Shown one piece after another: positions 4,262-45,579 of a stretch of 51,705 nt of DNA. The position numbers and the translations under genes were made by a program. The stretch comes from Clostridia bacterium. GTDB lineage: Bacteria; Bacillota; Clostridia; Lachnospirales; JAKSVV01. The notes beneath the pieces were generated by a model. The model ran no database searches, was not told where the DNA came from, and saw nothing but the letters and a program-made list of their open reading frames with translations. The DNA is taken from NCBI GenBank assembly GCA_024407775.1, contig JAKSVV010000001.1:1-51705 (forward strand), read 5' to 3'. Numbering within the stretch: the first letter of the stretch is position 1; each line of letters opens with the position of its first letter.

Positions 4262-4299
4262 TTAAAAAGGGAACCAAAACTTTACAGTTTTGGTTCCCT
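4262..4299 (-). terminator. Rho-independent terminator after fliW
   Basis: 12-bp stem gggaaccaaaac / gttttggttccc followed by a U-run on the minus strand. Confidence 0.7.
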
Positions 4300-4331: not shown

Positions 4332-4784
4332 TTATGCATACATTTGTACTAAATCTGCTAATTTGTGTCTAACAGTATAGTCAGCATTGTTTGCTATAAA
4401 TTGTCCACCCATATTTGTTTTTTCATTAATAACTACAGGTGCTTTTAAATTTACTGTTGCTTCTTTAGCGTTGTTTGGAATAACCATGATATTGAAAACA
4501 GAAATGTCTTTCATATCATCTTGTCCATGTACACCAATTGTAGCAAGTTCACTATCAGCTACATCTGGTTTATAATCAGGATAAAATACGTAAGGAACTG
4601 TTAATGCAAATGCTGTATCTGCTTCATCAACTGATTGTAACCAGCAGAATAATTCATTTTGATCTCTTTTTGATAGCATTACATAGTTCTTAGAATTTGG
4701 AAATCCAGGTATTCCTTCAGCAAATTTAATGATTTTGTTGTCTTCGATGTTTACTTCACCGAAATGTTTTGTGTTGATTTTCAT
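4332..4784 (-). CDS. fliW: Flagellar assembly factor FliW
   Basis: MKINTKHFGEVNIEDNKIIKFAEGIPGFPNSKNYVML... is the typical FliW family N-terminus, at about 150 aa. Confidence 0.9.
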   Translation of the reverse strand: MKINTKHFGEVNIEDNKIIKFAEGIPGFPNSKNYVMLSKRDQNELFCWLQSVDEADTAFALTVPYVFYPDYKPDVADSELATIGVHGQDDMKDISVFNIMVIPNNAKEATVNLKAPVVINEKTNMGGQFIANNADYTVRHKLADLVQMYA

Positions 4785-4883
4785 GATATTTCCCCCTCAA
4801 ATTAAAATTTTTACTAGAGGCAAACATACATTCCTTGTATAATGTTCAAGTATTTGAACATTCCTCATCGTACTTCCTGTACC

Positions 4884-4918
4884 TTATATATCGGACAGGA
4901 ATATTTTTTTCTTAAGGA
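4884..4918 (-). promoter_or_regulatory. Sigma-D (sigma-28)-like promoter upstream of fliW
   Basis: The minus strand reads TAAG-N15-TCCGATAT, against the B. subtilis sigma-D consensus TAAA-N15-GCCGATAT. Confidence 0.45.
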
Positions 4919-4943
4919 GTAAAATTAAAATATCTAGAAATTT

Positions 4944-5783
4944 TTAATCATTTTTATCATTTAAATTATTTTTTTCATTTTTAAGTTGATCACTTGATAC
5001 ACCAATTGTAAAGAAATATATGTTACGAACTTTAGTTTCAGATAATGCTTTTTTACATTCATTAATTGTAGCACCAGTTGTATAAACGTCATCAATAATT
5101 AAAACATCCATACCAAAAAGTTCATCTTCTTTTAATATCTCAAATGATCCTGCTATATTTTTTGCTCTATCTTTATTCGCTAGTTGTGATTGAGGTGCAG
5201 TATATCTCGTTCTGCCAATAACATCAGTCATATAAGGTAAGCCTGTTTTTTCATAAAATCTTTTAGCTATTAAATCAGACTGATTAAATCCTCTTTCTTT
5301 AAGTCTATCTTTGTGAATAGGCATTGGTATCATAAAATTAACATGATGATGTGATAAAAATTCTTTTAAATCATCACATGCAAGTTCACTAAGTGCAATT
5401 GCTATTTTTTTATCTTTGTTAAATTTTAATTTTTGAACTAAATATCTAACAACACCATCATAACGATATACGCTTTTTCCTATTTCTTTTTTTGTTACCT
5501 CATCATAAAAACTTTTATTAACTTTATATTGTTTATAAATTTCTATACAGTTATCGCAAACAAATGATTCATCAAAATTAACTTTAGTCTTACCACACAT
5601 ATAACATCGTGGTGGATAAAAGTCATCTATGATTTTCTTAAACAATCTTTTAAAACTAGAAGTTTTTTTGTATGAAAAAGAAGAAGATATATCTTCCACT
5701 ATAATAGTTTTATCTTCTTCAAATTTAAAGTCTCTTAATTTTTGTAATGTTTTAAAATCGTTTATAGAATCATTTGCTTTCAT
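4944..5783 (-). CDS. comFC: ComF family protein (ComFC-type phosphoribosyltransferase-fold competence protein)
   Basis: N-terminal zinc-finger cysteines (CYMCGK...CDNC) and a C-terminal PRTase motif (VLIIDDVYTTGATI). Start trimmed to MKANDS (GGTGA RBS). The ATG lies 1 nt after the recD2 stop. Confidence 0.85.
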   Translation of the reverse strand: MKANDSINDFKTLQKLRDFKFEEDKTIIVEDISSSFSYKKTSSFKRLFKKIIDDFYPPRCYMCGKTKVNFDESFVCDNCIEIYKQYKVNKSFYDEVTKKEIGKSVYRYDGVVRYLVQKLKFNKDKKIAIALSELACDDLKEFLSHHHVNFMIPMPIHKDRLKERGFNQSDLIAKRFYEKTGLPYMTDVIGRTRYTAPQSQLANKDRAKNIAGSFEILKEDELFGMDVLIIDDVYTTGATINECKKALSETKVRNIYFFTIGVSSDQLKNEKNNLNDKND

Positions 5784-5784
5784 A

Positions 5785-8103
5785 TTAATCACCATTATTA
5801 ATTTTAAATATCAATTGATCTTTTAAACTTGAATATCTTTTTTCATCTGTATCATTACGAACCATATCATAAATTGCATCTTTAGTTCCAACAAGAACTA
5901 TAAGTTCTTTAGCTCTAGTAATTCCTGTATAAAGTAAATTTCTATTAGCAAGTAATAATGGAATACTAAGAGTTGGAATAATAACAGCTTTATATTCTGA
6001 TCCTTGTGATTTATGAATAGTAATTGCATAAGCAAGTTCTAATTCATCAAGCATATTAGTTTCGTAAGTAACTTCTTTACCGTCATCAAATTTCACTTTG
6101 ATTTCATCTCTTAAATTATCAATTGAAATAATACGCCCAATATCACCATTAAACACACCTGTTCCTTTTTCACCAGTGACACCAAGATAAGAAATTTTTC
6201 TCCATTCTATTTCATAGTTGTTTTTAATTTGCATTACCTTGTCACCAGTTTTAAAAATCTTATTACCGTATTTAACTTCACCTTCATTTTTAAATAAAGT
6301 GTCGTTAGGATTTAATATCTTTTGTAATTTTTCATTTAAGTTAATTGTTCCAAGTGTACCTTTTTTCATCGGTGATAATATTTGAATATCACGAGATGCA
6401 CAATTTAGATATTTAGGTAATCTTTTATTAATTAAATCTATGATTGTTTTTTCTGCAACAATATCACTATTGGTATTAATAAAGAAAAAGTCTTTATCAT
6501 TTCCATTCAATATTGGCATTTTAGAATTTCTTATTAAGTGAGCATTACGTATAATGTTACTTTCTTCAGCTTGTCTAAAAACTTGAGTTAAGAAACATGT
6601 TTTAATTTTTTTAGAGTTAATTAAATCTTTTAAAACATTACCTGGTCCAACACTAGGTAATTGTTTTTCATCTCCCACTAAAATTAATTTAGTTCCAAGT
6701 TCAACTGCTTTTAGAAAACTATTAAATAATAAAATATCAACCATAGACATTTCATCTATAATAATTACATCAGTCTCTAATGGATTATCTTCATTACGAG
6801 CAAATTGTTGTGATTCATTTTCTATTGATACTGGTTGTACTTCTAGTAATCTATGAATTGTTGAAGCTTCTTTTTTAGTTGCTTCACTCATTCTATTTGC
6901 AGCACGACCAGTTGGAGCTACAAGAGTAACTCTCTTTTTGTTTAGTTCATAGTATTTAACTATAACATTAATAATTGTTGTTTTACCTGTTCCAGGTCCT
7001 CCAGTAATAATACTAACTTCAGATGCAAGAGAGTTAAGAACAGCTTCATATTGTTCATCAGAAAGATCAAGTTCAAGTTCTTTTAAAATACGATTAATTT
7101 CTCTTTCTTTTTTAACTAAATCTTTTTGTTTCTTTTCATATGTTTTCTTTTGTATCTTTGTTGCAAGTATAGTAGTATTGCCTAAGTCTTCATAATCATC
7201 AAGTGATAACATATCACGAATCTTATCTGAAACATTTTTTTCAGCATAGTAAAATTTCTTTAAGAAGATTCTATCTTCTCCATTGTCTTTTACTAAGTAT
7301 ACTTTCTTGTCTTTAATAAGTGCTTTTATACCTTCAATTATTTTTTCATCATCATATATTTCTAATATGTTTTTAGCATCTCTTATTAGTTCATCTTTAG
7401 GAAGATAACAATGTCCAACAAGTGATGCATTCTTTAAGGCATATCTAATTCCTTCTTCTATTCTTGAAATATTATCAAGTTTCATGTTACCACGAAGTGC
7501 TAACTTATCTGCGTATTTAAAATTAACATTGTCAATTTCATCAATAAGCTTATAAGGATCATTAACAATAATATGCATAGCTCTATCTTTATATTTTTCA
7601 TATATCTTTGTAGCCATGTTTATAGATATGTCATAATGTTGTGCTTCTAAAATAAAATTTCTCATAGAGTTTTTTTGTGTAAATTCATTGTGTAAGTTTT
7701 CTGCTTTTTCAAAAGTTATACCTCTAATAGAAGCAAGTTTTTCATAATCATTTTCTATGATATCAAAAGTTTCTTCTTTAAATTTTTCAACTATTTTTTC
7801 AGCAGTCTTTTCTCCTATGCCAAAAAATACTCCGCTAGATAAATATTTAATCATAGCACTTTTAGATTTAATATCTTCTTTTTCAATGCTTTCTACTTTA
7901 AGTTGCTTACCATAAATTTTATGTTCAGTGAATGTACCCATAACTTTAAGTTTTTCTCCGAGATAGACACCGTAACAAGTGCCAACACATGTAAGCATAT
8001 TTCCATCATCTAGTATTAGATCAAATATTGAGTAACCATTTTCTTCGTTGTAATAAACTATTTCATCTACTTCGCCTTTGTATTCATAAAGTTTTTGGTC
8101 CAT
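5785..8103 (-). CDS. recD2: ATP-dependent RecD-like DNA helicase (RecD2 type)
   Basis: Walker A ITGGPGTGKTT and Walker B IIIDEMSMVD, plus an SF1B C-terminal part (AITIHKSQGSE) and an N-terminal HhH-like region. Start trimmed to MDQKLYEY after GGGGGA. Confidence 0.9.
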   Translation of the reverse strand: MDQKLYEYKGEVDEIVYYNEENGYSIFDLILDDGNMLTCVGTCYGVYLGEKLKVMGTFTEHKIYGKQLKVESIEKEDIKSKSAMIKYLSSGVFFGIGEKTAEKIVEKFKEETFDIIENDYEKLASIRGITFEKAENLHNEFTQKNSMRNFILEAQHYDISINMATKIYEKYKDRAMHIIVNDPYKLIDEIDNVNFKYADKLALRGNMKLDNISRIEEGIRYALKNASLVGHCYLPKDELIRDAKNILEIYDDEKIIEGIKALIKDKKVYLVKDNGEDRIFLKKFYYAEKNVSDKIRDMLSLDDYEDLGNTTILATKIQKKTYEKKQKDLVKKEREINRILKELELDLSDEQYEAVLNSLASEVSIITGGPGTGKTTIINVIVKYYELNKKRVTLVAPTGRAANRMSEATKKEASTIHRLLEVQPVSIENESQQFARNEDNPLETDVIIIDEMSMVDILLFNSFLKAVELGTKLILVGDEKQLPSVGPGNVLKDLINSKKIKTCFLTQVFRQAEESNIIRNAHLIRNSKMPILNGNDKDFFFINTNSDIVAEKTIIDLINKRLPKYLNCASRDIQILSPMKKGTLGTINLNEKLQKILNPNDTLFKNEGEVKYGNKIFKTGDKVMQIKNNYEIEWRKISYLGVTGEKGTGVFNGDIGRIISIDNLRDEIKVKFDDGKEVTYETNMLDELELAYAITIHKSQGSEYKAVIIPTLSIPLLLANRNLLYTGITRAKELIVLVGTKDAIYDMVRNDTDEKRYSSLKDQLIFKINNGD

Positions 8104-8166
8104 ACATCCCCCTTTCATAAAATCTTTTCAATATAATAATTGTAGCATATAAAAACTTATAAACAA

Positions 8167-9264
8167 CTACTTGTCATAGTAAAATTGATACTTTTCATTA
8201 CCAAACATAATCTTATCGCCATTAACTAAAAGTCTTTCATCATTAGGTGATAATTTTTCATCATTAACAAATGTATGATTAGTAGAATTTAAATCTTTTA
8301 TGTAATAACCAAATTTATTTCTAAAAAACATAGCATGTTTTTTACTAATACTAGGGCTTTTAATTACATAGTTATTACTGCTATCTTTTCCTACATTAAA
8401 TTCATCTGTTGTTATATATATTTTATCATCAAGAAGTCCTTTTCTTAAATATGGATAACTTTGAATAATCATTGTTTCATCCATCACTTCTTCATTTATA
8501 AAATCTATTTCCTTATTATATTTTTCAATCAATTTCATAACAAGCAAAATAAATATAAATGTTATAGATAAAATTATAGTAAACTTCATACTGTTTTTTG
8601 TTAAAACTAATAAGATTAAAAATAGTAAAATACCAAAGATTTTTATGTATCTATTTCTTTTATTTTCTTTATCATACTCTTTCTTATAATCCATGTTATT
8701 TTTCTTATCAGTTTCTTCAATTTTAGTAATATCATCTTGCAAAAGTTTTTCTAAAAGTTTTCCCTTATCAGGTGATGGATGTTCTATAATTTTCATTAGA
8801 TCATCGCTTTTATAAATACCATTTTCATTCATTAAAAAATTGTAAGACTCTTTGAAATTTTTATCTAAATTATTAATAGGGAGATATATGAATTTAAAAT
8901 TGATTTCTTGTTTTGATCTATATGCAATTTCATCTATAAATATAAAATTCTTATCAAGTATTAAATTATTTTCATTAAGCAAATAATTATGCATAGATGT
9001 TACTAACATATCTATTTTAGTTTTTAAAATATCTTTGATAACAGGTTCATAGGTTCTTGCAAAATCGCATAATGATATATATCCATTTTTATTGTATGTA
9101 AATTTAAGACATGTTAAATCATTTGTTTCTTCACATTTGAATTTAATAAGGTTAAGTTCATTTTCAATGTCACTTGCTTTATTAATCATATCAATTTGAT
9201 AGTTAATAGCATATGTGTCATATACCTTAAATATCACTTCTTTATCACCAATATATTTATCCAT
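8167..9264 (-). CDS. Membrane protein with a C-terminal FHA domain
   Basis: Central TM helix (IFGILLFLILLVLT...). The C-terminus VGKDSSNNYVIKSPSISKKHAMFFRNKFGYYIKDLNSTNHTFVNDEKL...GDKIMFG is a canonical FHA fold signature. GGAGGTG RBS. Confidence 0.8.
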   Translation of the reverse strand: MDKYIGDKEVIFKVYDTYAINYQIDMINKASDIENELNLIKFKCEETNDLTCLKFTYNKNGYISLCDFARTYEPVIKDILKTKIDMLVTSMHNYLLNENNLILDKNFIFIDEIAYRSKQEINFKFIYLPINNLDKNFKESYNFLMNENGIYKSDDLMKIIEHPSPDKGKLLEKLLQDDITKIEETDKKNNMDYKKEYDKENKRNRYIKIFGILLFLILLVLTKNSMKFTIILSITFIFILLVMKLIEKYNKEIDFINEEVMDETMIIQSYPYLRKGLLDDKIYITTDEFNVGKDSSNNYVIKSPSISKKHAMFFRNKFGYYIKDLNSTNHTFVNDEKLSPNDERLLVNGDKIMFGNEKYQFYYDK

Positions 9265-9272
9265 ATCACCTC

Positions 9273-10085
9273 CTAATTAATAATTGTCACTTTAAATTGT
9301 ATGCCTTTATTATGAGCATAATTTTTAACTATCATAAGATCCTTTTCAATTAAACTATCATAATCATTAGTTGGAAGAATTAAATTAAATATTTTTCCTT
9401 TATAAGAATCTTCATTTATATTTTTTCCATTAACTGTTCCAGATTTAAAATTATAAAGTTCATTAATATCATTCTTTAATTTTGAAACAATTAATTTATG
9501 ATTATTACTATAAGTATCTTTTCTAAAATCCAAGCTAACCATAGATACAATTTGATCATTATATATATTATCAATATGGCTACCATCAAACTCACTAAAA
9601 GCATCAGTAAGATCAGATATGCTTTTAGCTCTATTAATATTACTCATACTCCATATATCAAAATCATTTTTTATATATTCAGTATTAATACCATAATCAA
9701 GAAGACTTAAGCCATGCGTAAAAAGTTTAGTTTCAATTTTCTTCTCGTTATAATAATCATCAATAAAATTTAATGGTATATCATATTTATAATTAATATT
9801 GTAATTTAATTTATCTCCACTTATCTGATAATCATCTTCCATATTAGAAAGACGTTTATAATTTTTATGTTCTAGTTTTTTAAAAGTATATGGAAGGTTA
9901 TAAATATATTCTTTATATGAACTAGAATTATTTTCTATAATATTAAAAGCAATTTCTTTCGAGATGTTATCAGATAATGAAATGTAATACATAACATAAT
10001 TAAATGTTAAAAGAACTAAAGCAAAAACAGGAAAAACTAATGCTCCTTCAATGGATAAGTTTCCTTCATTATTTTTAATATCCAA
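9273..10085 (-). CDS. TadE/pseudopilin-like protein (prepilin-like N-terminus)
   Basis: TTG start. N-terminus MDIKNNEG-NLSIE-GALVFPVFALVLL (G-x4-E followed by a hydrophobic helix). Overlaps the upstream gene by 11 nt. Confidence 0.5.
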   Translation of the reverse strand: MDIKNNEGNLSIEGALVFPVFALVLLTFNYVMYYISLSDNISKEIAFNIIENNSSSYKEYIYNLPYTFKKLEHKNYKRLSNMEDDYQISGDKLNYNINYKYDIPLNFIDDYYNEKKIETKLFTHGLSLLDYGINTEYIKNDFDIWSMSNINRAKSISDLTDAFSEFDGSHIDNIYNDQIVSMVSLDFRKDTYSNNHKLIVSKLKNDINELYNFKSGTVNGKNINEDSYKGKIFNLILPTNDYDSLIEKDLMIVKNYAHNKGIQFKVTIIN

Positions 10086-11454
10086 AACTTACATCAAGCA
10101 TGTAATTATAATTTGAATTAAATCTAAAAGATGAAGGTAAACAAAATCGTGAAGCAAACATTAATTTTTCACTAGCATCAGTTCTTATTGTTAAATTAGA
10201 ATAAGTTGTATCCATAGAAAATAAACAGTTGTATTTTTTTAAATTTATATTTATTAATTTAATAATTCGTTCAGTAAGAGCATCATCATCCATCGCAAGT
10301 AAAATAATTTTCAAAAAATCATCATATGATAACTCATAGTCAATATATGATAATTTATATTTATTACCTAAAAGTAAATTTTCATATTCACTATTTGCTT
10401 CATCAAGTGCCCATGAAGTTAGGATTAAATTTTTGCATATTGTAACACCAGCATCACTAGACCACCATCCGCAAACAGCACAAGCTATAAGTTCAGCTTC
10501 TAAAACTTTTTCATTATCATGAGATATTTCTAATAACTTATCAGGAAAAATCATAAGCAAAATTTTTTCTTTCGTTTTTTTAATGTTTGTATTCTGACTA
10601 TTAGATCCAAAAATTATATATTCAATTTCAGCATCAAAATACGAATTACGTTCTTTTTTAGTTATAAGAGAATTAAATGTTTCCATTGTATAAGATGTTA
10701 AATATAAATCATCTTTAAAATCAAAAACATTTTTAATCTTATTAACAAAGTTATTAGAATCTTCATATATGTTATCAAGTTTTATAGTATATTTTTCATA
10801 TTCTATATCATTATCAATATCATCTTCATAAACAATATCTGTATCACTATCTGTATTAACTTTATTAACTATCGTATCACGCGTATCGCGTGATGCGTAA
10901 CTAAGCACATTCTCATATTCATCTTCACTAACACTTTTAATTTCTTTATCATGTGTTTCTTTTGAATCAGAATAATCTGTATCAATAAATGATATAACTG
11001 ATTCAAACAAATTTTGATAAATATTATTTTTAAATTTTAAACTTTCATATAAACCAATTTGTCTTTTAACTTCATATATATTATTAAGTTTTGTGCCACC
11101 AATTATTTTTACATCATTAATATGAGTTCTATTAAATTTAGTAAAATTAATATTTTTAATTAAATTGTTTTTTATTACATCTTCAATTTCAAATTCATTT
11201 TGATAACAGATACCTAGTAGATGATAATCATTATATAGTTCGGTCGCATAATCACACATCACTGTGTTAATAGCTACATATGACATCTCTTTTAAATTAT
11301 TTTTTGATGAATATATTCTTAGTATATCTATGAACGAAAATATTAAAAGTAATAAAGCTGTTATAATAATGGTAAGAAACACACTGTTTATTCCTTCTTC
11401 GTTTAAGATACTATTTTTTGTTTTAATCAAAAAGTATGTTATCTTCTTTAACAT
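10075..11454 (-). CDS. Large pilus-associated protein with a prepilin-like N-terminus (TadG-like?)
   Basis: N-terminus ...ILNEEG-INSVF-LTIIITALLLLIF, with no recognisable catalytic motif. Overlaps both neighbouring genes. Confidence 0.4.
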   Translation of the reverse strand: MLKKITYFLIKTKNSILNEEGINSVFLTIIITALLLLIFSFIDILRIYSSKNNLKEMSYVAINTVMCDYATELYNDYHLLGICYQNEFEIEDVIKNNLIKNINFTKFNRTHINDVKIIGGTKLNNIYEVKRQIGLYESLKFKNNIYQNLFESVISFIDTDYSDSKETHDKEIKSVSEDEYENVLSYASRDTRDTIVNKVNTDSDTDIVYEDDIDNDIEYEKYTIKLDNIYEDSNNFVNKIKNVFDFKDDLYLTSYTMETFNSLITKKERNSYFDAEIEYIIFGSNSQNTNIKKTKEKILLMIFPDKLLEISHDNEKVLEAELIACAVCGWWSSDAGVTICKNLILTSWALDEANSEYENLLLGNKYKLSYIDYELSYDDFLKIILLAMDDDALTERIIKLININLKKYNCLFSMDTTYSNLTIRTDASEKLMFASRFCLPSSFRFNSNYNYMLDVSFGY

Positions 11455-11629
11455 TATTTATTCCATCATATATATTAAAATTATTATCAAGGCTAGAATT
11501 ATTTGATATCAGATTTTCTTTATTACCATTAAATATATAAATAGTAATCGTAATAATTGTAATTATAAAAATCATCATTAAAGGTAATACAATAGATGCT
11601 TCAATTGAGTAATTACCTTCTTCATTCAT
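11423..11629 (-). CDS. Small TadE-like minor pilin
   Basis: MNEEG-NYSIE-ASIVLPLMMIFIITIITITIYIF. Its ATG shares one nucleotide with the flp stop codon (TAATG). Confidence 0.5.
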   Translation of the reverse strand: MNEEGNYSIEASIVLPLMMIFIITIITITIYIFNGNKENLISNNSSLDNNFNIYDGINNVKEDNILFD

Positions 11630-11823
11630 TATTCTAATCCCGAATTTCTAATTGTCTCAGGACTAATATCCGTCTGGGTATTTAATACGTCGTTAAGTAT
11701 ATTACTCGCGAAGCCAATCATTTTATCTCTAAAGATTAAAGCAATTCCTACTACAACAGCAAGTATAATTACAATCTCAATTGTATTTACACCTTGTTCA
11801 TTTTTAAAAATTTTAGACTTCAT
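11629..11823 (-). CDS. flp: Flp/Fap-family prepilin (putative major pilin)
   Basis: 64 aa: MKSKIFKNEQG-VNTIE-IVIILAVVVGIALIF. It has the G/xxxxE[YI] Flp processing motif followed by a hydrophobic helix, and the strongest RBS in the cluster (AGGAGGAAT). Confidence 0.6.
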   Translation of the reverse strand: MKSKIFKNEQGVNTIEIVIILAVVVGIALIFRDKMIGFASNILNDVLNTQTDISPETIRNSGLE

Positions 11824-11830
11824 ATTCCTC

Positions 11831-13183
11831 CTAGAAATTCATCGCACATGCTGCCGGATATACAACCATAATCATAGTTGATATAAGTATCATCATAAGA
11901 GGCAGTAATGCTTTAATATTATTTTCTTCTGCTATTTTTTGATAAGAATATTTCTTATTAATGTTAAGCAAATTTAATTCATTTTTTAATAACTCACATA
12001 AGTTACCATTACCTCTTTTAAGATTAACTATTAATGTTGTTACAAATCTTTTTATATTTGAACTATGTGACTCTTCACCAAAAGATTCTAAAACCTTATA
12101 TGGGTTTTCGGATATGCATAGTTTAGAATTCATTTTAATAAGTTCATGTTTTAATTCATTATCTTTCTTATATCTATCATTAATATATTTGATAGCATTT
12201 GAAATATTAAAACCAGCACTTTGAAGAAGTATATAATCTTCTACAAAATCTATAAACTGGTTTTCTAAATTAAATACATGTTTTTTTCTTTTGCTTTTTT
12301 CTTTATTAAATTCATTAAATATTAACAAAGCATAAATAATAATTACATATACTAATAGTTCTAAGCTGTTATTTTCATTATCTATATCAGGGTAATACCA
12401 TGATAGATTTTTATCATTTAAAGTTGTTGGTAAGGTTAATTTTTCATCTTTATTAAACAAGTTTTCATTTTTATTTAAATCGTTTATTTTGGTAATTAAT
12501 TTGTTGTTATCAGATTCAAGTTTAGATATATTATCTTCTATAATTATTATTTTAAATTCTTTTACTTTCTTAATATCTTTATATGTTACTGTAACTTTAA
12601 GTGTATCTTTAAAGTTCCCTTCTCCAGCATAAGGGCGTAAGACATCGCCATTATCGGTATCAATATATCCATTTTTGCTTTCATAATAGATATCAGCACC
12701 ATATGAATTCTTTGTCACTAAATTTAAATTTGTAGTAACATTAGTTAAACTTTTATTATCTCCTTTAATAGTATTAGTTATGACATATATAAGTCTATCA
12801 ACTATATCCATATCAGTTGGAGATTCTTTAGGTATTTTTAAATCGAAATTATAAAACTTCCCATCTAGTTTTAAATCTAAATTAATGAACTTATCATCAG
12901 ATATAAAATCATTGTAATTAGTACTAACAAACATTTCTTTTTCTTTTTTATTAGGCATAAGTACAAAAGAAAATATTATTAAAATTATTATTAATGCCAA
13001 GCAAAAAGTATAATTAAAAACATTAATAAAAATTTGATCATTATAAATCGAAACATTTTTATTAAAAATTTTTATTAAAGAAACTAATTTAGTCTTAAAC
13101 GATTTAAAATATTTTTTGTTAAAACTAAATATAAAATTTTTAATTTTGCAAATTAAATCTTTATAGTTCATTAGTAATATCAC
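11831..13183 (-). CDS. tadC: TadC-like platform protein (T2SS-F family) with a large N-terminal extracytoplasmic insert
   Basis: The C-terminal ~150 aa are a GspF/TadC-like domain (FVEDYILLQSAGFNISNAI...LLPLMMILISTMIMVVYPA). Residues ~80-270 lie between TM helices. GTG start at 13183; an alternative ATG is at 13171. Confidence 0.65.
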   Translation of the reverse strand: MILLMNYKDLICKIKNFIFSFNKKYFKSFKTKLVSLIKIFNKNVSIYNDQIFINVFNYTFCLALIIILIIFSFVLMPNKKEKEMFVSTNYNDFISDDKFINLDLKLDGKFYNFDLKIPKESPTDMDIVDRLIYVITNTIKGDNKSLTNVTTNLNLVTKNSYGADIYYESKNGYIDTDNGDVLRPYAGEGNFKDTLKVTVTYKDIKKVKEFKIIIIEDNISKLESDNNKLITKINDLNKNENLFNKDEKLTLPTTLNDKNLSWYYPDIDNENNSLELLVYVIIIYALLIFNEFNKEKSKRKKHVFNLENQFIDFVEDYILLQSAGFNISNAIKYINDRYKKDNELKHELIKMNSKLCISENPYKVLESFGEESHSSNIKRFVTTLIVNLKRGNGNLCELLKNELNLLNINKKYSYQKIAEENNIKALLPLMMILISTMIMVVYPAACAMNF

Positions 13184-13907
13184 CCATCATTTTTTCTCCG
13201 ATTAGATAAGCACCAATAAGTAAAAATAGACATATAGTTAGAACTATATAACCAGTCACGCTTTCATATATAGGCATCAAAAACTCATTGGCAGTTAATG
13301 ATAAGAAGCCATATATTAATATAGGTATTGCAAGCATAATTCTAAGTTCATATTTTTTCTCATAAAATATTTTTTCTATCTCATACCCGATTTCAATTCG
13401 GTCAGTAATTACTTTGACTGTATCACTAAGAATAGAATTAATATCTCCTGTTGTTTTTTCTGCAATTAGAATTGAATCATAAAATTTATCAATCTCAGGT
13501 ATATCAAATTCTTCTTTAAGAATTTTAATAGCACCAGAAAAATCATTATATGTTATTAAATAGTTTTTACTTTGTTTTAATATATTAATAAATTCATTGC
13601 TGCTAGCTATTTTAATAAACTCATTATATGAATTTATAAATGCTTTAGCTGGTTCATCACCAGTTAAAGAAGAAACTGAAAATAAATTAATAAACTCTTT
13701 AAAATCTATTAAGACTTTTTTTAGTTTTTCATTTTCTTCATCTTTTAATATTTTTTTATACACTATTATGTACGACCAGCTTATAAGAAAGCTTAGAAAT
13801 AAGTTTCTATAAAACAGCATGCATATAGCAAAGAAAATTATATATAAATAAAAGGAGATTTTTATTTTGGTTTTTCTGTCGATAAATTTGTATTTATTAT
13901 TTTGCAA
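13161..13907 (-). CDS. tadB: TadB-like platform protein (T2SS-F family)
   Basis: TM helices flank a soluble helical GspF-like domain. Position directly after cpaF. TTG start overlapping the cpaF stop. Confidence 0.65.
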   Translation of the reverse strand: MQNNKYKFIDRKTKIKISFYLYIIFFAICMLFYRNLFLSFLISWSYIIVYKKILKDEENEKLKKVLIDFKEFINLFSVSSLTGDEPAKAFINSYNEFIKIASSNEFINILKQSKNYLITYNDFSGAIKILKEEFDIPEIDKFYDSILIAEKTTGDINSILSDTVKVITDRIEIGYEIEKIFYEKKYELRIMLAIPILIYGFLSLTANEFLMPIYESVTGYIVLTICLFLLIGAYLIGEKMMGDITNEL

Positions 13908-15042
13908 TTAATCCACCCATTTTTATAATTTCGTTTTTATTGTAATCATATTTATATATTTCATTCATAACATAGTGACCATCTTCATATCCAGAGATTT
14001 GACTAATCTCAACTATCTTTCTATTTCCTTCACTGTTTCTTGAAATATGTATTATGATATCAATAGCTGAAGCTATTTGTCTTTTTATAGCTTCAAGAGG
14101 AAGATCATAAGCCATTATAACCATAGACTCAAGACGTGTTAGCATATCACGTGATGAGTTAGCATGACCCGTTGATAAACTTCCTTCATGGCCAGTGTTC
14201 ATAGCTTGAAGCATATCAAAAGTTTCACTCCCTCTAACTTCACCAACTATTATTCTATCTGGTCTCATTCTTAATGATGTGATTAACAAATCTCTAATAG
14301 AAATTTTATTATCACCATTAATGTTTCCATCTCTAGTTTCTAGTGACACTAAATTTTTAATGTGATTGATTTTTAATTCAGCGGAATCTTCAATAGTTAT
14401 TACTCTTTCATCTTCTCCAATAAAATTACTCATAATATTAAGAAGTGTTGTTTTGCCACTACCCGTTCCGCCCGAAATAAATATGTTGTATTTATTTTTA
14501 ACAATATATTTTAAAAATTCACCAACTTCAGAAGTAATAGTTCCATTATTAATTAGATCACTAGCACTAAGTAGTTCCTTAGAAAATTTTCTAATAGTAA
14601 CTATAGGTCCATTTAACGCAACTGGTTTCCCAACAATATTCACTCTAGATCCATCTTTAAGTCTAGCATCAAGTATTGGTCTAGCTATACTTATCATCTT
14701 GTTAACTTCAGATGCAATCTTTTCTATAATGTTATCAATTTCAGCATAAGTTAAGTGAATGTTAGTTTGAATTATTTGACCATGTTTTTCTATGAAGATA
14801 TCGTTTATACCATTGATCATAATTTCACTAACATCACTATCATTTATAAATTTTTCTATCTTACCATAACCGATAATTTCATCCAATATGTCATTTTTGA
14901 TTTCTTCTTTTTTATCTTTATCAATATAAGTTAAAAGAGACGCTTTAGAAATCTCTTCATTAATAACATATTCAATTTCATCTTTATTAAAATCATCAAG
15001 CTTAGTAATTTTATTTTTAATTTTACTTTTTACATCTAACAT
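13897..15042 (-). CDS. cpaF: CpaF/TadA-family type II/IV secretion ATPase
   Basis: Walker A FISGGTGSGKTTLLN, Asp box, Walker B RPDRIIVGEVRG, and a His box MNTGHEGSLSTGHAN. Confidence 0.9.
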   Translation of the reverse strand: MLDVKSKIKNKITKLDDFNKDEIEYVINEEISKASLLTYIDKDKKEEIKNDILDEIIGYGKIEKFINDSDVSEIMINGINDIFIEKHGQIIQTNIHLTYAEIDNIIEKIASEVNKMISIARPILDARLKDGSRVNIVGKPVALNGPIVTIRKFSKELLSASDLINNGTITSEVGEFLKYIVKNKYNIFISGGTGSGKTTLLNIMSNFIGEDERVITIEDSAELKINHIKNLVSLETRDGNINGDNKISIRDLLITSLRMRPDRIIVGEVRGSETFDMLQAMNTGHEGSLSTGHANSSRDMLTRLESMVIMAYDLPLEAIKRQIASAIDIIIHISRNSEGNRKIVEISQISGYEDGHYVMNEIYKYDYNKNEIIKMGGLIAK

Positions 15043-16001
15043 ATCATTCCTCTAATATTATTAAGAAGCATATAGTCTTTTTTAGAATGAGTTAATTTAA
15101 GTTCTATTATTTTATCCTTAATAGAATTATTATTTTTCTTTTTTATATAAGTAAAATAATTTTTAACTCTGTCTTTTTTAATTTCATCATATTTTGTATA
15201 AAGTAATATAAAGGTATCTGCCTTATTAATAACATCATTTATAAAAGGATTAACATTACCTTTTAAGATTGAAATATTACATTTAAAATCTAGAGTATTC
15301 AATTTATTATTAATATCAACATAATCTTCTTGTGATAATTCATTAAAATCATAAGGGTTAGTTAAAGGATAAAAAGTAAAAGTATCGTCATTCACTTTCT
15401 TAAGTTTATTTAGAAAACTATCATTATTTAAAATATTATTTGATCCTAATGCCATAGCCATATCCATTCCGTCATCCGAAACTTCATTAGAAAACATTTC
15501 ATAATTCCATATTAGTTTTTTTGTACCTGGCATAATATCATCAATTAGTTTATTCATAAATCCATCAACATATAAAGATGATGCGTTGTATATGACTATA
15601 TTTTTAACAGGGTATGTAATAGATGGAGTGTGATTTTTATCAACTGATTGTATATTATCATTTATATCATCATCTTTTATGTAGCTTTGATTTATAATTT
15701 CATATATTTGTTTTAATAGATTATTCATATTTTGATATTTAAAATAATACTTACTATTAATATCTTCTTCATCACTTAACGTTTGCTCATTAAGCAAGAT
15801 AATAACGTTATTACCTTTTTTCTCTTTTGTTTTATAATCATCATTTATTAATATAACATCAAAGTCATATAGTTCTTTATCAGCTATATAATCTTTTATA
15901 GTTATGTATGAGTAACATTTAATATTTTTATCACTCATATAATTTTTAAAATTTTCTAAATACTTTTCATCCTTATCAACTATAGCTACTTTAGTTAGCA
16001 T
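15036..16001 (-). CDS. TadZ/CpaE-like protein with a receiver-like N-domain and a degenerate P-loop (tentative)
   Basis: The N-terminus MLTKVAIVDKDEKYLENFKNYM...DFDVILINDDY looks like a CheY-fold. The position where CpaE carries KGGxGKT reads IVIYNASSLYVDG. Overlaps comEC and cpaF. Confidence 0.4.
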   Translation of the reverse strand: MLTKVAIVDKDEKYLENFKNYMSDKNIKCYSYITIKDYIADKELYDFDVILINDDYKTKEKKGNNVIILLNEQTLSDEEDINSKYYFKYQNMNNLLKQIYEIINQSYIKDDDINDNIQSVDKNHTPSITYPVKNIVIYNASSLYVDGFMNKLIDDIMPGTKKLIWNYEMFSNEVSDDGMDMAMALGSNNILNNDSFLNKLKKVNDDTFTFYPLTNPYDFNELSQEDYVDINNKLNTLDFKCNISILKGNVNPFINDVINKADTFILLYTKYDEIKKDRVKNYFTYIKKKNNNSIKDKIIELKLTHSKKDYMLLNNIRGMIC

Positions 16002-18313
16002 TTCACACCTCGAATTTTAAAATTTATCATTCCAGAATAATATGTTGTTATTATCTTAGAATTTTTAAACTTATATACATTCTTCTTATTGAAGTTTGTA
16101 ATATTAGCTTTGTTGCCTGATACGATTAAATATTTAGGGGAGACAACTTTTACGAATTCATCAGTTGATGACGTATTAGAGCCGTGATGAGCTACCTTCA
16201 TTAGAAAGACATTCCTTTCTATCTTATTACTATCTATAATAATTTCTTCAGCTTCCTTTTCTATGTCTCCCGTAAATAAAAAATCTTTATCATCAATTTT
16301 CATATTTAAAACCACAGAATAGTTATTAGGTTTAAATTTATAATCATCAATATTAGGTGGTGGATAAATACAATCTATATGTACTCTTCCGAGTTCAAAG
16401 TAAGAATTATTATCTATGGCTATTATAGGAATTTTATACTTTACTGCTTTTTCTTTAAGTTCCTCATAATAATTTCCACTTAAAGTTCCTTGGGGGACAA
16501 GTATCTCGCCTATATCTATAAGGCTTATGAGTTCAATAATTCCTTTAATGTGATCTCTATCTGTATGTGTTACAACACAAACATCAAGTTTAGAAAGACC
16601 TAAATAATTCAAGTAGGGAAATACATTATAATTACCCGTGTCTTTCTCATTATCATTTTTGCCACCACCATCAATCAACAGAGACTTATTTTCTTTTTTA
16701 TCAAAGATTAGGATTGAATCTCCATGATCAACATCAATGAAAGTTACATCTATTTCATTTGGTTTATAAAATATTGAAAATAAAAAAATAATAAGAGATA
16801 AAGCATACAATTTTATATACAAAAGAAATCTTCTTTTATCTCTAATAGTATCTCTTTTCTCTTTAATGATCTTATATAAAATGAAATAACTAACATACCA
16901 AACTATAATGGTAAAAAGTGAAAGTTTACCTGATATGATTTTAAAACCATTTAGTTTTGATAAATAAGTTAGTACTTCTTCATAATACATAAGAATAAGT
17001 GAAATAAGTTTTCCTAAAATAATTGCTAAATTAAAATTAATGTATTTTAAAAATATTAAAATAAAACTTGATATGACTAGAGTACTAGTCAGAGGTAAAA
17101 TAAATATATTTGCAATCATGCTTAGACCTTGAAAATTGTAAAAGTTATAAGTAAGTATAGGTGTCATTAACATGAAAACAGATATTGTACTTGCATAATT
17201 TTTAAATATACCTTTTAATCTTAATTTTGCTTTCATAGATAAAATAGCACTAAACGATAATATAAAACTAACGTTAAATAAATTAGCACTATTAATCATT
17301 AATATAATTAAACAAGCAAGTGATAAACCACTCAGTGAATCATACTCTCTATCAAGGAGTAAACTTATCTCACTAAAAATAGTCATAAGTAATGCTCTTA
17401 TAGTAGAAATATTCATACCCGTGAAAATGGTATACAAAAACAAAATTGAAACCAGACATGTGAATTTAATTTTTTTATTCTTGATAAAATAACTAAGTAT
17501 CTTTTTTAAAAATAAAGAAATTATTCCTATGTGCATACCACTAATTGCTAGTATATGAAATACTCCACCATTCTTATAAAGAGTTTTGGTATCACTATCA
17601 AGCAAACTGCTTTCTCCAGTTATCATTGCTTTAATTATTGAACTATATTTTTCACTAAGAAGTGAGTCGTAAATATTACATATTTTATTTCTAAGTTTAG
17701 ATAAATCAGTAACAATAAAAATATAACCAGGACTAACATTAAGCACCTCGCCAGAAAAATTATAATAAATCCGTTGTGCTCTTTTGTATTCTTTCTCATT
17801 ATAGGAGCCTAAATTTTTAACACTATTTATGTTAGTAAGCATTCCTTTTAATTTAATTTTGTATCCAGCATATATTTCATTGCATAAACTTTTATCAATA
17901 TAAACTTCAACGTTCTCATTAACTGATTTTAATTTTACTTTTGCTTTATAATTTTCTTCACGTGTGGTTATCTTAGTTATAACTCCTTCGTATTCACGTT
18001 TATCATACAGGGTTTGGGTAGAATATGGATTAAAATGATGATTCGAAATATAACTCGAGATAAATCCATACGCAAAGAATATTAAGCATAAAATAATTTT
18101 TTTATAATTAATAAAATCTTTAAAGTTTAAAAGTAATATTTTAAAATTTTTAAATCTTACTTTTTTATCTCTGTCAAATTTATTAATAATCAAAATAAAA
18201 AAATCAGTAATGAACAATATAAAAATAAGTAATATAGTTTCCAATAAATTTAATTTTGTCTCAGAATAAATTCCGCAAATTAAAAATATTAAAATTGCAA
18301 TTATTTCTTTCAT
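15995..18313 (-). CDS. comEC: DNA internalization-related competence protein ComEC/Rec2
   Basis: N-terminal OB-like region, a polytopic competence domain, and a C-terminal metallo-beta-lactamase domain (VTFIDVDHGDS, HTDRDH, VAHHGS). Start trimmed to MKEIIAILIF (ATG at 18311-18313, GGTGA RBS). Confidence 0.9.
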   Translation of the reverse strand: MKEIIAILIFLICGIYSETKLNLLETILLIFILFITDFFILIINKFDRDKKVRFKNFKILLLNFKDFINYKKIILCLIFFAYGFISSYISNHHFNPYSTQTLYDKREYEGVITKITTREENYKAKVKLKSVNENVEVYIDKSLCNEIYAGYKIKLKGMLTNINSVKNLGSYNEKEYKRAQRIYYNFSGEVLNVSPGYIFIVTDLSKLRNKICNIYDSLLSEKYSSIIKAMITGESSLLDSDTKTLYKNGGVFHILAISGMHIGIISLFLKKILSYFIKNKKIKFTCLVSILFLYTIFTGMNISTIRALLMTIFSEISLLLDREYDSLSGLSLACLIILMINSANLFNVSFILSFSAILSMKAKLRLKGIFKNYASTISVFMLMTPILTYNFYNFQGLSMIANIFILPLTSTLVISSFILIFLKYINFNLAIILGKLISLILMYYEEVLTYLSKLNGFKIISGKLSLFTIIVWYVSYFILYKIIKEKRDTIRDKRRFLLYIKLYALSLIIFLFSIFYKPNEIDVTFIDVDHGDSILIFDKKENKSLLIDGGGKNDNEKDTGNYNVFPYLNYLGLSKLDVCVVTHTDRDHIKGIIELISLIDIGEILVPQGTLSGNYYEELKEKAVKYKIPIIAIDNNSYFELGRVHIDCIYPPPNIDDYKFKPNNYSVVLNMKIDDKDFLFTGDIEKEAEEIIIDSNKIERNVFLMKVAHHGSNTSSTDEFVKVVSPKYLIVSGNKANITNFNKKNVYKFKNSKIITTYYSGMINFKIRGVKC

Positions 18314-18329
18314 ACATTCACCGGATGTA

Positions 18330-18358
18330 AATATAGAAAAATTATTTTTTAAATTCAA
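18330..18358 (-). promoter_or_regulatory. Sigma-A-type promoter of the comEC-to-comFC operon
   Basis: The minus strand reads TTGAAT, a 17-nt spacer, then TATATT, about 15 nt upstream of the comEC ATG and downstream of the GH18 terminator. Confidence 0.4.
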
Positions 18359-18467
18359 CCATTTCTTCCCCAAAAGTCGATTTAGAAACCCCAAATGTTT
18401 GTTTTTTTAAAATTTTCGACTTAAGGAAGAACTTTTCTTCCTCTAACCCTACCGTAGGGGAATGAAA

Positions 18468-18510
18468 TCAAAAAAATACCTCGTAAGGCTAATAAAACCG
18501 TACGAGGTAT
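18468..18510 (-). terminator. Rho-independent terminator after the GH18 gene
   Basis: 10-bp stem atacctcgta / tacgaggtat followed by a U-run on the minus strand. Confidence 0.6.
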
Positions 18511-18535: not shown

Positions 18536-20296
18536 TTACTTTTTCATATATTCTTCATAAAGTTTCCAGATATCATCATTATCAAAACCTTTCTTCCAAG
18601 ATGCAACTCCAATTAAATTATATTTAGTAGCTAAATCTAATCTTTGTTTAATTGATGTTTGATCTTCAAGCCAAATTTTAAATATTGAATTATCTTTTGT
18701 ATATTCTCCGAAGTTTTGTTTTGTTTCTTCATCAAAAATAATTTTAGCTTTATTTTCTTTTAAATCATTCATAGCATTATCCATACCAAATGATTTTTGA
18801 TTTATTACTTTATTCTTTTTATCAACTTCCCATCTTCTTGTATAAAGTGGAATACCTAAAACTAATTTATTATTATCAACTTCTTTTAATGTTTCTTTTA
18901 TTCCTCTTTCAACCCAAGGTAAAGATCCAACTGATCCAGCTTCAGGACATGTTGACCAATGTTCATCATAAGCCATAAGACAGAAGTAATCAACATACTC
19001 ACTTACAACTTTTCTATTATAGAATGATGTACCTTGACTTGGCATATACATATCAAGTGAAAGTTCTAAATCATTTAAATTACAGAATACACTAAGTTCA
19101 CGAATATATTGAACATAGTATGGTCCAGTTTTTGATTTAATACTTTCTATATCAACATTAATTCCATCAATACCATATTTCTTACAGTAACTCATCATTT
19201 GTTTAATACTATTTTCTCTCGATACTGCATTTGATAACATATCATGAGATAATGAGCTATCACTAAATGGATTAGTAACAAGTGCCCAAATTTTATAATT
19301 ATTTTTATGAGCCCATTTAACTATATCATTATCAATCTTTTCTCTAATGTTACCGTCTTTATCATTAATTTCAAACCAAGTAAAACACATATGTGTCATA
19401 CCAGGAACTTTTTTAAGTGTATTAGTTTTTGGATTAGATGATTTACTATTAACTTGATACCATACGATATCAATTTTATTTTTTACATTCTCTTTATCAT
19501 CAAGCATTTCATCATTAGATAATAAAACTTTTTCATTACCATATGTTAAACCCGAATTAAGTTCTATATCACTTGATGCTTCATTAGTTATACTTTCTTT
19601 ATAGCTAAGTAAATTTGATTTTATAAAACCAGATTCGCCATTACTATTTACTATACGTGACCATGTTCCATCATCACTATATCTAGTAACTTCACTGCCT
19701 AAAATAACATTACCAACGATGCTAGATTTAATTGTAGATGTTTCTCTCATAACATCATCAGCATTAACTAAACATATATCTCTTTTAACATTAGCAAGAT
19801 CCATTAATAAAATATTGTAATCACTAATATAATTAAAAGTAATACCATATAGTTCTTTAAGTAATGACATAGGTAAATACATCATACCATCTTTTTCAAT
19901 AGGACATGCATTTCCTTTTTTAACTTTGCCATTTAAAACAAATTTTATTTCATCTTTTTCATATCTAATATATGTAGTTTTATTTGCACATATTACATAG
20001 TTATCATTTTGTATAATTGTATCATCAACATATTTAGTAAGAATAAAAACAGGAAGCATGACTTCTCCATTTTCATAAATAATAGGAGAACCTTCTCTTA
20101 CTATCTCACCATTAATTAATAATCCAGAGTTGCCACTAACAAGTTCAGGCATTCTTTCATATATTGATAATATATCAAAACTCGGAAGAAATATTTGCAT
20201 CATAACCCATATAAAAATAAAAGATGCAATAATATCACCGATTAATTTTCTATAATTAATCTTCTTCGTCCTCTTCTTCGCACGCATCTTGATCAA
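18536..20296 (-). CDS. Membrane-anchored glycoside hydrolase family 18 protein (YaaH/YdhD-like peptidoglycan or chitin hydrolase)
   Basis: GH18 catalytic motif DGINVDIE. N-terminal TM anchor, a copper-amine-oxidase-N-like stretch and an SH3-like segment (GSEVTRYSDDGTWSRIVNSNGESGFIKSNLL). TTG at 20296 or ATG at 20287. Confidence 0.8.
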   Translation of the reverse strand: MIKMRAKKRTKKINYRKLIGDIIASFIFIWVMMQIFLPSFDILSIYERMPELVSGNSGLLINGEIVREGSPIIYENGEVMLPVFILTKYVDDTIIQNDNYVICANKTTYIRYEKDEIKFVLNGKVKKGNACPIEKDGMMYLPMSLLKELYGITFNYISDYNILLMDLANVKRDICLVNADDVMRETSTIKSSIVGNVILGSEVTRYSDDGTWSRIVNSNGESGFIKSNLLSYKESITNEASSDIELNSGLTYGNEKVLLSNDEMLDDKENVKNKIDIVWYQVNSKSSNPKTNTLKKVPGMTHMCFTWFEINDKDGNIREKIDNDIVKWAHKNNYKIWALVTNPFSDSSLSHDMLSNAVSRENSIKQMMSYCKKYGIDGINVDIESIKSKTGPYYVQYIRELSVFCNLNDLELSLDMYMPSQGTSFYNRKVVSEYVDYFCLMAYDEHWSTCPEAGSVGSLPWVERGIKETLKEVDNNKLVLGIPLYTRRWEVDKKNKVINQKSFGMDNAMNDLKENKAKIIFDEETKQNFGEYTKDNSIFKIWLEDQTSIKQRLDLATKYNLIGVASWKKGFDNDDIWKLYEEYMKK

Positions 20297-23894: not shown

Positions 23895-24008
23895 AGTTTG
23901 TACCTATCCTCCAATTTCTACTTTTTTATTTCTTAATATCACTCAATCTAATTTCAATTTAATTATCAAAATTTATATTTTATAACTTTTACTTTTTATT
24001 TATATTTT

Positions 24009-24773
24009 TTATTCCGTCACATCACTAAGTTCGTTTTCAATATTTTCTGCTTCTTCATTAGTAGCAGTTAATACTTCATATAATTGTTTTACATATTGAA
24101 GTATATCTTCTTCGGCTGGAATCATTTCAGTTACATTTTCAATTTCGCCAAGTGTAACATCACGTTTTTCACCAGTTACAGCATCATATGCTTCAAGATG
24201 AATTTCTCCATCAGTAACATTTACGCTATTGATTAATGCTTTCCATGTGTTTTGATATCCGCTTTCAAAAATTTCTGTTCCTGAAACAATCTTTCCAATT
24301 AATGAGTTTGCATAAGATAATTTTGTATAATCTAAAACTCCATTTGATGTTGTTTCATCATTAACAACTGATTGTACTTTTCCAAGTTCGATGTCTTTAT
24401 CTCCAACAAGTAAATATACTTCGCCAGAAATAACTTTTGTTCCATCAACTTTTCCAATCACGCTGTTACCATCAGCATCAGTTGCACTAATAATCTTACC
24501 AATCATTCCAGTTGCTTCATTCATCTCATTAGCAAATCCTAAGTTTTCCATAATTTCTAGTGTAGTAAATTGTGCCATTTGTGATAAGAATTCTGAGTTG
24601 TCTTGTGGATCAAGTGGATCTTGATATTGCATTTGTGTAACTAATAAGTTTAAGAAAATATCTTTATCAGATGTTCTTGCTTCTTCAGCTTGAACTTGTG
24701 TAGTTGTTTGACCATATTTTTTAATATAATCATCCATAGTCACGTTACCATTAACATTACTTACGCCGCTCAT
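24009..24773 (-). CDS. flgD: Flagellar hook capping/assembly protein FlgD
   Basis: FlgD motif [37 protein letters not shown]. Confidence 0.9.
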
Positions 24774-24802
24774 TATCGGGCCTCCTTAAAAAATTTCTTT
24801 AT

Positions 24803-26422: not shown

Positions 26423-26457
26423 AGATTCCTCCTTTCTCAAAATTTAGTCCTAACTCT

Positions 26458-29332: not shown

Positions 29333-29370
29333 TTTAAATTTTTATAAAAAAATATATAGAGGTAATTATT

Positions 29371-30474: not shown

Positions 30475-30513
30475 TAATATATAAATATGCTTTACAACAA
30501 AATCATATATTGC

Positions 30514-30535
30514 TATAATAAAGTTGATAATAACA
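30514..30535 (+). promoter_or_regulatory. Candidate nrtR promoter (-10) with an overlapping operator-like site
   Basis: TGcTATAAT (-10 at 30514-19), followed by TGATAATAACA (30525-30535). That site differs by one base from the pnuC-region palindrome. Confidence 0.35.
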
Positions 30536-30556
30536 AATTAATAAAAAGAGGTTTAT

Positions 30557-43539: not shown

Positions 43540-43560
43540 ACTACCTCCTAAAAAATTTTA

Positions 43561-44346: not shown

Positions 44347-44397
44347 GTTTCCTCCATTAATTTTTTATATAAAAATAAGCATACTAAAATAAGTATG

Positions 44398-44667
44398 CTA
44401 TCCTAAATATTGTCCCATATTTGTGAACAAATTATTTGTAAACTGTATAAGAATGTTAAGAATCCAAGTACCGAAAACAAGCAAAGACGCGAAAATAGCA
44501 ACTATCTTCGGAACGAACGCTAAGGTTTGTTCTTGAATAGAAGTTACAGCCTGAAATATACTGACTATAACACCGACAACTAATCCGCAAATTAGCATCG
44601 GTGCAGATGCCTCAAGTATTGTTATCAAAGCATCAGTTACAACTTTAGTAACGATTTCGCTTGTCAT
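44398..44667 (-). CDS. fliQ: Flagellar export apparatus protein FliQ
   Basis: 89-aa, two-TM protein with the pattern ...GLVVGVIVSIFQAVTSIQEQTLAFVPKI. Confidence 0.92.
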   Translation of the reverse strand: MTSEIVTKVVTDALITILEASAPMLICGLVVGVIVSIFQAVTSIQEQTLAFVPKIVAIFASLLVFGTWILNILIQFTNNLFTNMGQYLG

Positions 44668-45559: not shown

Positions 45560-45579
45560 TACCTAATATCTCCCTACAA

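Follow-up and report, generated by a model that had tools for sequence, protein, structure and literature searches.

A full-length comEC, encoding the DNA-import channel of natural transformation, was found at the head of a Tad/Flp pilus operon in a 51.7-kb contig (the window, meaning the whole stretch of DNA analysed) from an NCBI metagenome-assembled genome (MAG) of an uncultured organism labelled 'Clostridia bacterium'. The same arrangement, with comEC directly upstream of tadZ-cpaF, was present in four lineages (window/L001, L011, L002 and L003), and ComEC appears to have relocated to the front of a Tad operon in the ancestor of what is a small and rare clade, and to have kept that position. 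The link suggests, and does not prove, Tad-based DNA uptake; a machine in which the Tad pilus feeds ComEC was the best reading of the sequences, at a probability of about 0.5. Tad-associated DNA uptake was already known, and what is new here is the conserved comEC-Tad operon fusion in a Firmicute lineage; no comEC-tad operon was described in Denise et al. 2019 (PMC6668835) or in the other literature searched.

Conservation of the comEC-tad link

The four comEC-linked loci differed in ComEC sequence and in what lay upstream of comEC.
window/L001: GH18 gene upstream of comEC
L011: ComEC 52% identical to that of the window; same GH18 gene upstream
L002: ComEC 44% identical to that of the window; fliK-flgD-flgE directly upstream
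L003: ComEC 43% identical to that of the window; different upstream gene; in-frame TGA apparently read as sense

CpaF identity across the four lineages was 56-63%, and their comEC/tadZ junctions comprised a 7-nt overlap, a 2-nt gap, an 18-nt gap and a 1-nt overlap. In-frame TGA codons were present in comEC, the FHA gene and recD2 of two relatives (L003:2247-4535 and 11311-12345; L015:1923-4295). Because those in comEC aligned mostly to aromatic residues (F, Y, W) of the homologues, the L003 and L015 lineages appear to read TGA as sense, probably as tryptophan, and L003 was counted as a distinct lineage for this reason. The window itself used the standard genetic code, with TGA as the stop codon in 3 of 50 genes.

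None of the Clostridial Tad loci next closest to these four (L004-L008) contained comEC. The same module with an A24 peptidase and no comEC was found in L004/L005 and L006, and the comEC-less L007/L008 loci held an aBig_2 TadC, an EC869-like protein, an FHA gene and a kinase. When metagenome contigs were searched with the CpaF subclade alignment, the matches listed included 80 background Tad loci, all generic (43-53% identity, zero subclade members), of which 45 had at least 3.5 kb upstream of cpaF; the ComEC hidden Markov model (HMM) matched none of these 80. A scan of genome contigs with the ComEC subclade alignment returned two irrelevant loci; the patterns were too specific, and the source MAG was not recovered either. 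The next-nearest ComECs were 32-34% identical and lay in other contexts, one of them in the canonical comEC-holA-rpsT-gpr-spoIIP-lepA context. The linkage to which an initial annotation of the window had drawn attention was thus kept in four divergent lineages and was not general, being found neither in L004-L008 nor in the 80 background loci listed.

A GH18/Cu_amine_oxidN1/SH3 protein was encoded directly upstream of comEC in the window (18536-20296) and in L011 (3417-5189), and a few kb upstream of the comEC-less Tad locus in L006 (2994-4805). Its presence near a Tad locus that lacks comEC gives a hint that the Tad locus stayed in its chromosomal neighbourhood and that comEC was added to it.

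Organisation and proteins of the gene train

In the window, comEC to comFC formed a train of 12 minus-strand genes (4944-18313) flanked by two hairpin terminators; with fliW, 13 minus-strand open reading frames (ORFs) lay within 4332-18394. Sizes below are given in amino acids (aa).
18470-18510, minus strand: hairpin terminator 3' of the upstream GH18 gene (10-bp stem ATACCTCGTA/TACGAGGTAT, 15-nt loop, T-run; read directly)
18330-18358, minus strand: candidate sigma-70-type promoter TTGAAT-17-TATATT, 17 nt upstream of the comEC ATG (9 of 12 consensus positions)
15995-18313, minus strand: comEC, full-length DNA-import channel of 772 aa (OB/DUF4131, Competence and metallo-beta-lactamase nuclease (Lactamase_B) domains)
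15036-16001, minus strand: divergent tadZ, 321 aa, with a receiver-like and a ParA/MinD-like domain (profile-profile homology)
13897-15042, minus strand: cpaF/tadA, pilus motor ATPase (T2SSE 6.6e-55; NCBI name CpaF family protein)
13161-13907, minus strand: tadB, platform protein (weak T2SSF 8e-4; position and homology to tadB of related loci)
11831-13183, minus strand: tadC, platform protein with an Ig-like aBig_2 insert (aBig_2 3.1e-11, T2SSF 9e-5)
11629-11823, minus strand: flp, major pilin (Flp1_like, 45.9 bits against a cutoff of 33.5; prepilin motif NEQG|VNTIE)
11423-11629, minus strand: shortened TadE-like pseudopilin, 68 aa (TadE 1.2e-3)
10075-11454, minus strand: DUF5702 membrane protein, in the TadG-like position of Clostridial Tad loci (DUF5702 9.6e-27)
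9273-10085, minus strand: pseudopilin-like protein, 270 aa, with a TadE-like N-terminus, long helix, beta-sheet head and C-terminal EC869 CdiA-CT-type nuclease fold
8167-9264, minus strand: FHA/DUF6382 membrane protein, last gene of the Tad module (FHA 5.1e-18, DUF6382 3.1e-7)
8139-8166, minus strand: promoter-like element TTGTTT-16-TACAAT in the FHA-recD2 spacer (read from the sequence)
5785-8103, minus strand: recD2, superfamily 1B (SF1B) DNA helicase (TIGR01448, 816 bits against a cutoff of 500; OB_YrrC, HHH_RecD2, AAA_19/30, SH3_13)
4944-5783, minus strand: comFC, zinc ribbon and phosphoribosyltransferase-like domain (DZR_2, Pribosyltran)
4888-4894, minus strand: sigmaD-like -10 element CCGATAT ahead of fliW (read from the sequence)
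4332-4784, minus strand: fliW, flagellar assembly factor (FliW 2.3e-38; synteny in L014 and L015)
4268-4299, minus strand: hairpin terminator after fliW, the downstream boundary (14-bp stem)

Stop and start codons overlapped at most junctions of the train; measured on the longest ORFs, the gaps from comEC to comFC were, in order, -7, -7, -11, -23, +7, -1, -32, -11, +8, +48 and -11 nt, and the spacer between comFC and fliW was 159 nt. At the first junction the comEC stop overlapped the tadZ start (ATGCTAA). The transcription unit is bounded upstream by the terminator at 18470-18510, whose 15-nt loop, longer than 8 nt, hid it from the consensus scan. Between the two boundary terminators the scan gave no minus-strand terminator-like site. 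These results bore out the observation of the initial annotation: all the genes that it listed were present on the minus strand where it had placed them, and the tight packing, the 7-nt comEC/tadZ overlap and the lack of a terminator until after fliW were all confirmed. Its promoter at 18330-18358 was plausibly placed. However, promoter-like matches occurred at chance frequency in this AT-rich window (GC content 22-35%; 140 observed against 145 expected from shuffles), so that its position is what supports this promoter and the match itself carries no statistical weight.

With one strand, short or overlapping junctions, a terminator at each end and none internal, the train has the layout of a single operon and is presumably co-transcribed. 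A caveat comes from the elements in the FHA-recD2 spacer (8139-8166) and the comFC-fliW spacer (4888-4894), which are possible internal promoters: the former was matched by TTGTTT-16-TAGAAT in the corresponding spacer of L014, and the latter resembled the sigmaD consensus. GC content at third codon positions was uniform over the train and its flanks, indicating that the train is native; horizontal acquisition was rejected on this ground. A 15-mer found after the FHA gene in both L014 and L003 (TTGTTTATTTTACTT) was rejected as a regulon signal, the window containing 25 matches with at most 3 mismatches against 23.5 expected.

ComEC scored 223 bits against TIGR00361 (cutoff 190), and its HTDRDH metal-binding motif was invariant across three subclade members. 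Catalytic motifs were intact in ComEC, CpaF, RecD2 and ComFC; within the subclade the CpaF Walker A motif (GGTGSGKTT) and RPDRIIVGEVRG were invariant. The 321-aa TadZ-like protein alone gave zero Pfam matches. A TadZ profile of four subclade members matched canonical Clostridial TadZ over both domains (hhalign probability 98.7%, E 2.1e-16), and a mixed profile matched PDB 3FKQ, the structure of Eubacterium rectale TadZ, at 1e-37. The subclade-only profile found nothing significant in PDB, so that the homology is established by profile-profile comparison. In the subclade alignment the TadZ Walker A motif was lost in the window, L011 and L002 and kept in L003 only.

The T2SSF matches of TadB and TadC were below the Pfam cutoff, and the assignment is backed by gene order and by homologues with T2SSF matches; the aBig_2-TadC architecture was also seen in L002, L003, L006 and L007. 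Flp was the most conserved protein of the module, with 79-82% identity to L002/L003 compared with ~62% for CpaF and 43-44% for ComEC. The 68-aa TadE-like protein aligned to the N-terminal part of 124-210-aa homologues; across the family this pseudopilin shrinks from 208-210 aa in generic loci to 124-130 aa in L002/L003 and 68 aa in the window. Together with the 270-aa protein, which has a TadE-like N-terminus, it supplies the TadE/TadF-like pseudopilins of the module. The DUF5702 protein was found in all related Tad loci, comEC-linked or not, and gave no match to PDB by sequence. The FHA/DUF6382 gene held the same position in L003, L004, L007 and L014.

The 270-aa protein matched CDI_toxin_EC869_like at 1.1e-6, and its profile matched PDB 4G6U at 2.9e-15 and 4ZQU at 1.4e-17. 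The same two structures topped the Foldseek ranking of its AlphaFold2 model (mean confidence, pLDDT, 85.8), in which a long pilin-like helix, a beta-sheet head and a C-terminal domain were seen. The C-terminal domain shares its fold and the region of the D..S-x-K motif with the EC869 and YPIII CdiA-CT DNases represented by these structures; unlike in the toxins, what precedes it is a pilin-like N-terminus and not CdiA, and an immunity gene is absent. The EC869-like pseudopilin family was rare (45 representatives at E<=1e-3 among 1.84 billion proteins). Homologues were encoded at L007:16255-17250 and L014:1-588, and the EC869-fold pseudopilin regularly formed part of this Clostridial Tad module, with comEC linked or without.

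At the other end of the train, the best NCBIfam match of ComFC was comF (TIGR00201) at 3e-31, with 109 bits, under the 233-bit cutoff. comFC abutted recD2 in the window, L014 and L015. The order FHA-recD2-comFC-fliW was the same in L014, where RecD2 was 80% identical, and recD2 of a generic Clostridial locus was not adjacent to comFC. The placement of comFC upstream of late flagellar genes including fliW is like that of the B. subtilis comF-flgM...fliW region. No csrA followed fliW in the window, unlike in L015.

Possible Tad-based DNA uptake and competing explanations

If a Tad pilus feeds ComEC, the ten genes of Unit A (comEC and nine Tad genes) would yield ComEC made together, and translationally coupled, with the Flp pilus machine. 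The Flp prepilin would be processed by a peptidase encoded elsewhere, and pilus assembly would fall to the CpaF-TadB-TadC platform, with the three pseudopilin-like proteins priming or capping the fibre. The Flp pilus would then capture double-stranded DNA and CpaF-driven retraction would bring it to the membrane, where one strand would be degraded by the nuclease domain of ComEC and the other taken in through its channel. Unit B (recD2-comFC) would be transcribed by read-through, possibly also from its own promoter; it would provide the cytoplasmic partners, with ComFC acting at the channel exit and RecD2 being either the helicase in the position filled by ComFA in Bacilli or a modulator of RecA. 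The protein interactions, the binding of DNA by the pilus and the replacement of ComG by the Flp pilus are parts of this scheme that we infer. In its favour are the conserved comEC-Tad link despite differing flanks, the lack of comEC in the outgroup loci, the departure of comEC from its canonical context, the intact catalytic motifs and the native composition of the train.

There are two precedents for a Tad pilus in transformation or DNA uptake. In Micrococcus luteus, tad genes are required for transformation, tad and comEA/comEC lie at separate loci, and tadV is unclustered (Angelov et al. 2015, PMC4322843), which bears out the precedent cited in the initial annotation. The likeness is that M. 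luteus is monoderm, needs both its tad genes and comEC for transformation, has no ComG-type system and, as in the window, has no prepilin peptidase gene clustered with the tad genes. It differs in having two tad clusters apart from comEA/comEC, in having ComEA and in lacking TadZ, whereas in the low-GC Clostridia studied here comEC leads the Tad operon, ComEA was not seen in the window, and the system is known from sequence alone. In Liberibacter crescens, DNA uptake depends on Tad and transformation on comEC (PMC8513845). There too a Tad pilus is implicated in uptake of double-stranded DNA, ComEC is required and no other pilus system exists; however, this is a diderm alphaproteobacterium, its genes are not reported as one operon, and uptake is proposed mainly for food.

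The Com machinery of Bacilli (comG; comEA-EB-EC; comFA-FB-FC) likewise combines a type IV filament with ComEC and ComFC. By contrast, the filament in the window is of the Tad type (CpaF, TadB/C, Flp) and not ComGA/GB/GC, RecD2 (SF1B) stands in the place of ComFA (superfamily 2), and comEC is apart from comEA/comEB. A ComEC-ComFA-ComFC complex is described in Firmicutes (PMC12663950), and RecD2 is listed among the accessory proteins for chromosomal transformation in B. subtilis (PMC12539628). The comEC-less Clostridial Tad loci (Clostridiales bacterium GWE2_32_10, L007/L008) share TadZ, CpaF, TadB, aBig_2-TadC, Flp1-like, TadE-like, DUF5702, EC869-like and FHA/DUF6382 proteins with the window. 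They differ in often having an A24 peptidase and a Ser/Thr kinase and in keeping the TadZ Walker A motif, and the window in having a TadE-like protein of only 68 aa.

Several observations weigh against Tad-fed uptake through ComEC. Because the FHA, DUF5702, aBig_2 TadC and nuclease-fold pseudopilin proteins all occurred in comEC-less loci as well, the Tad part is not visibly specialised for DNA in any of its components. In the 270-aa pseudopilin and its nearest relatives the D..S-x-K of the toxins was changed to D..S-x-V; more distant TadE-type and toxin-type members of the EC869-like family keep K or R. The lysine has a catalytic role in EC869, and since valine replaces it, the 270-aa protein is probably not an active nuclease. 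This protein does not count as evidence specific to DNA uptake, because L007, which lacks comEC, encodes it too, with an identical K-to-V change. No A24 prepilin peptidase (TadV/CpaA) was found in the train or in the window ORFs scanned, although Flp carries the processing site G|VNTIE; the peptidase may be encoded elsewhere in the genome. With this peptidase missing from the window and the TadZ Walker A motif lost, the 'complete monoderm Tad set' of the initial annotation did not hold. Its statement that comG, comEA and comFA are not visible did: protein scans of the window gave no comG, comEA (no HhH or ComEA protein), comFA or dprA. A comG set or a second comEC may lie elsewhere in the genome.

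Further points concern the downstream genes and the link itself. RecD2 translocates 5' to 3', and in pneumococcus the imported strand enters 3' end first, so RecD2 would be a poor fit for pulling in such a strand. In L015 (RecD2 56% identical), a flagellin-like gene was followed by recD2-comFC-fliW-fliW-csrA with no Tad genes; in L003 the FHA gene was followed by a gene for a 99-aa protein, a flagellin-like gene and the contig end; and the FHA-recD2 boundary of the window was the largest spacer of the train, with a promoter-like element in it. Judged by gene order, recD2-comFC-fliW is a unit separable from comEC-Tad. Because the downstream half is a separate unit, the earlier picture of a Tad module fused into a comEC...recD2-comFC operon gives way to a comEC-led Tad operon abutting recD2-comFC-fliW. 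The comEC-Tad link probably arose once; as the clade is monophyletic, it counts as one retained event and not four, a single phylogenetically non-independent observation, and the host organisms are uncultured. In the interpretation first given to this locus, the gene identities, the packing and the comEC-Tad link therefore stood, and the completeness of the Tad set and the fusion history did not.

It is possible that the locus encodes an ordinary adhesion or colonisation Tad pilus, upstream of which comEC landed once and was kept by inertia in compact AT-rich genomes, with independent functions for the two and with recD2-comFC-fliW merely the next unit. A Tad gene content the same as in comEC-less Clostridial loci, a single origin of the link in one clade and a separable Unit B are all what this explanation predicts, and flagellar operons broken up among unrelated genes indicate that gene order has been shuffled in the lineage. 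However, the genes stay adjacent, in the comEC-first order and with stop and start codons close together or overlapping, even where ComEC identity has fallen to 43%, and the link survives a change of genetic code and different flanks. It would also leave aside that comEC appears to have left its canonical context specifically for this position and that Flp is strongly constrained (79-82% against ~62% for CpaF). Tad and ComEC might instead form an uptake machine serving mainly to scavenge nucleotides and not for recombination, as proposed for Liberibacter (PMC8513845), which would fit small, AT-rich, probably host-dependent genomes. A GC content of 25-30% in the window and the recoding of TGA in two relatives indicate reduced genomes, and an NMN (nicotinamide mononucleotide) transporter and genes for salvage of NAD (nicotinamide adenine dinucleotide) are present in the window; RecD2 and ComFC, handlers of incoming single strands, nevertheless adjoin the unit, and we regard scavenging as the main purpose as improbable. 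Very improbable is a Tad-linked ComEC that is a paralogue with a non-transformation role (e.g., a membrane nuclease or channel, or pilus-associated processing of extracellular DNA in biofilms), the canonical comEC being elsewhere. Between the subclade ComECs and their closest counterparts outside it, identity is only 32-34%, and the Tad module includes a nuclease-fold pseudopilin, but the protein is a full three-domain ComEC above the TIGR00361 equivalog cutoff with its metal-binding motif kept, and a second comEC was not observed in the data, which come from one contig.

A more far-reaching version of Tad-fed uptake seems doubtful to us: AT-rich Clostridia, some of which read TGA as sense, would have swapped ComG for a Tad/Flp and ComEC operon, the nuclease-dead EC869-fold pseudopilin would replace ComEA as a pilus-borne DNA receptor, and RecD2-ComFC would replace ComFA-ComFC as the motor pair. 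If true, this would be the first operon-encoded Tad-type transformasome.

Firmicute transformation is understood almost entirely through the ComG pilus, and Tad-dependent transformation or uptake was found to be shown experimentally only in Micrococcus and Liberibacter, with no single comEC-Tad operon reported there. A conserved operon in which comEC heads a Tad module would be the strongest genomic evidence so far for Tad pili as recurrent DNA-uptake fibres, and predicted competence would extend to Clostridia without recognisable comG. The nuclease-fold pseudopilin becomes a candidate DNA receptor and RecD2 a candidate stand-in for ComFA. Such an operon would also show that systems of this kind escape the detection models now in use, in which ComEC is tied to ComM-type pili.

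Neighbouring features of the window

Flagellar genes were found in blocks split by unrelated genes (22320-26440 and 42352-51667), one being motAB-fliLMY-cheY-fliOPQR-flhB and another fliK-flgD-flgE, while fliW stood by itself. An NAD-salvage cluster on the plus strand (28619-31402) encoded a PnuC-like NMN transporter, a NadR-like cytidylyltransferase-like/AAA_28 protein and a Nudix/NrtR-type regulator, and is consistent with a scavenging lifestyle. No tRNA genes were found in the window. The sole Rfam match was a ribosomal protein L10 leader (RF00557, 59.7 bits) at 445-573, downstream of rplA.

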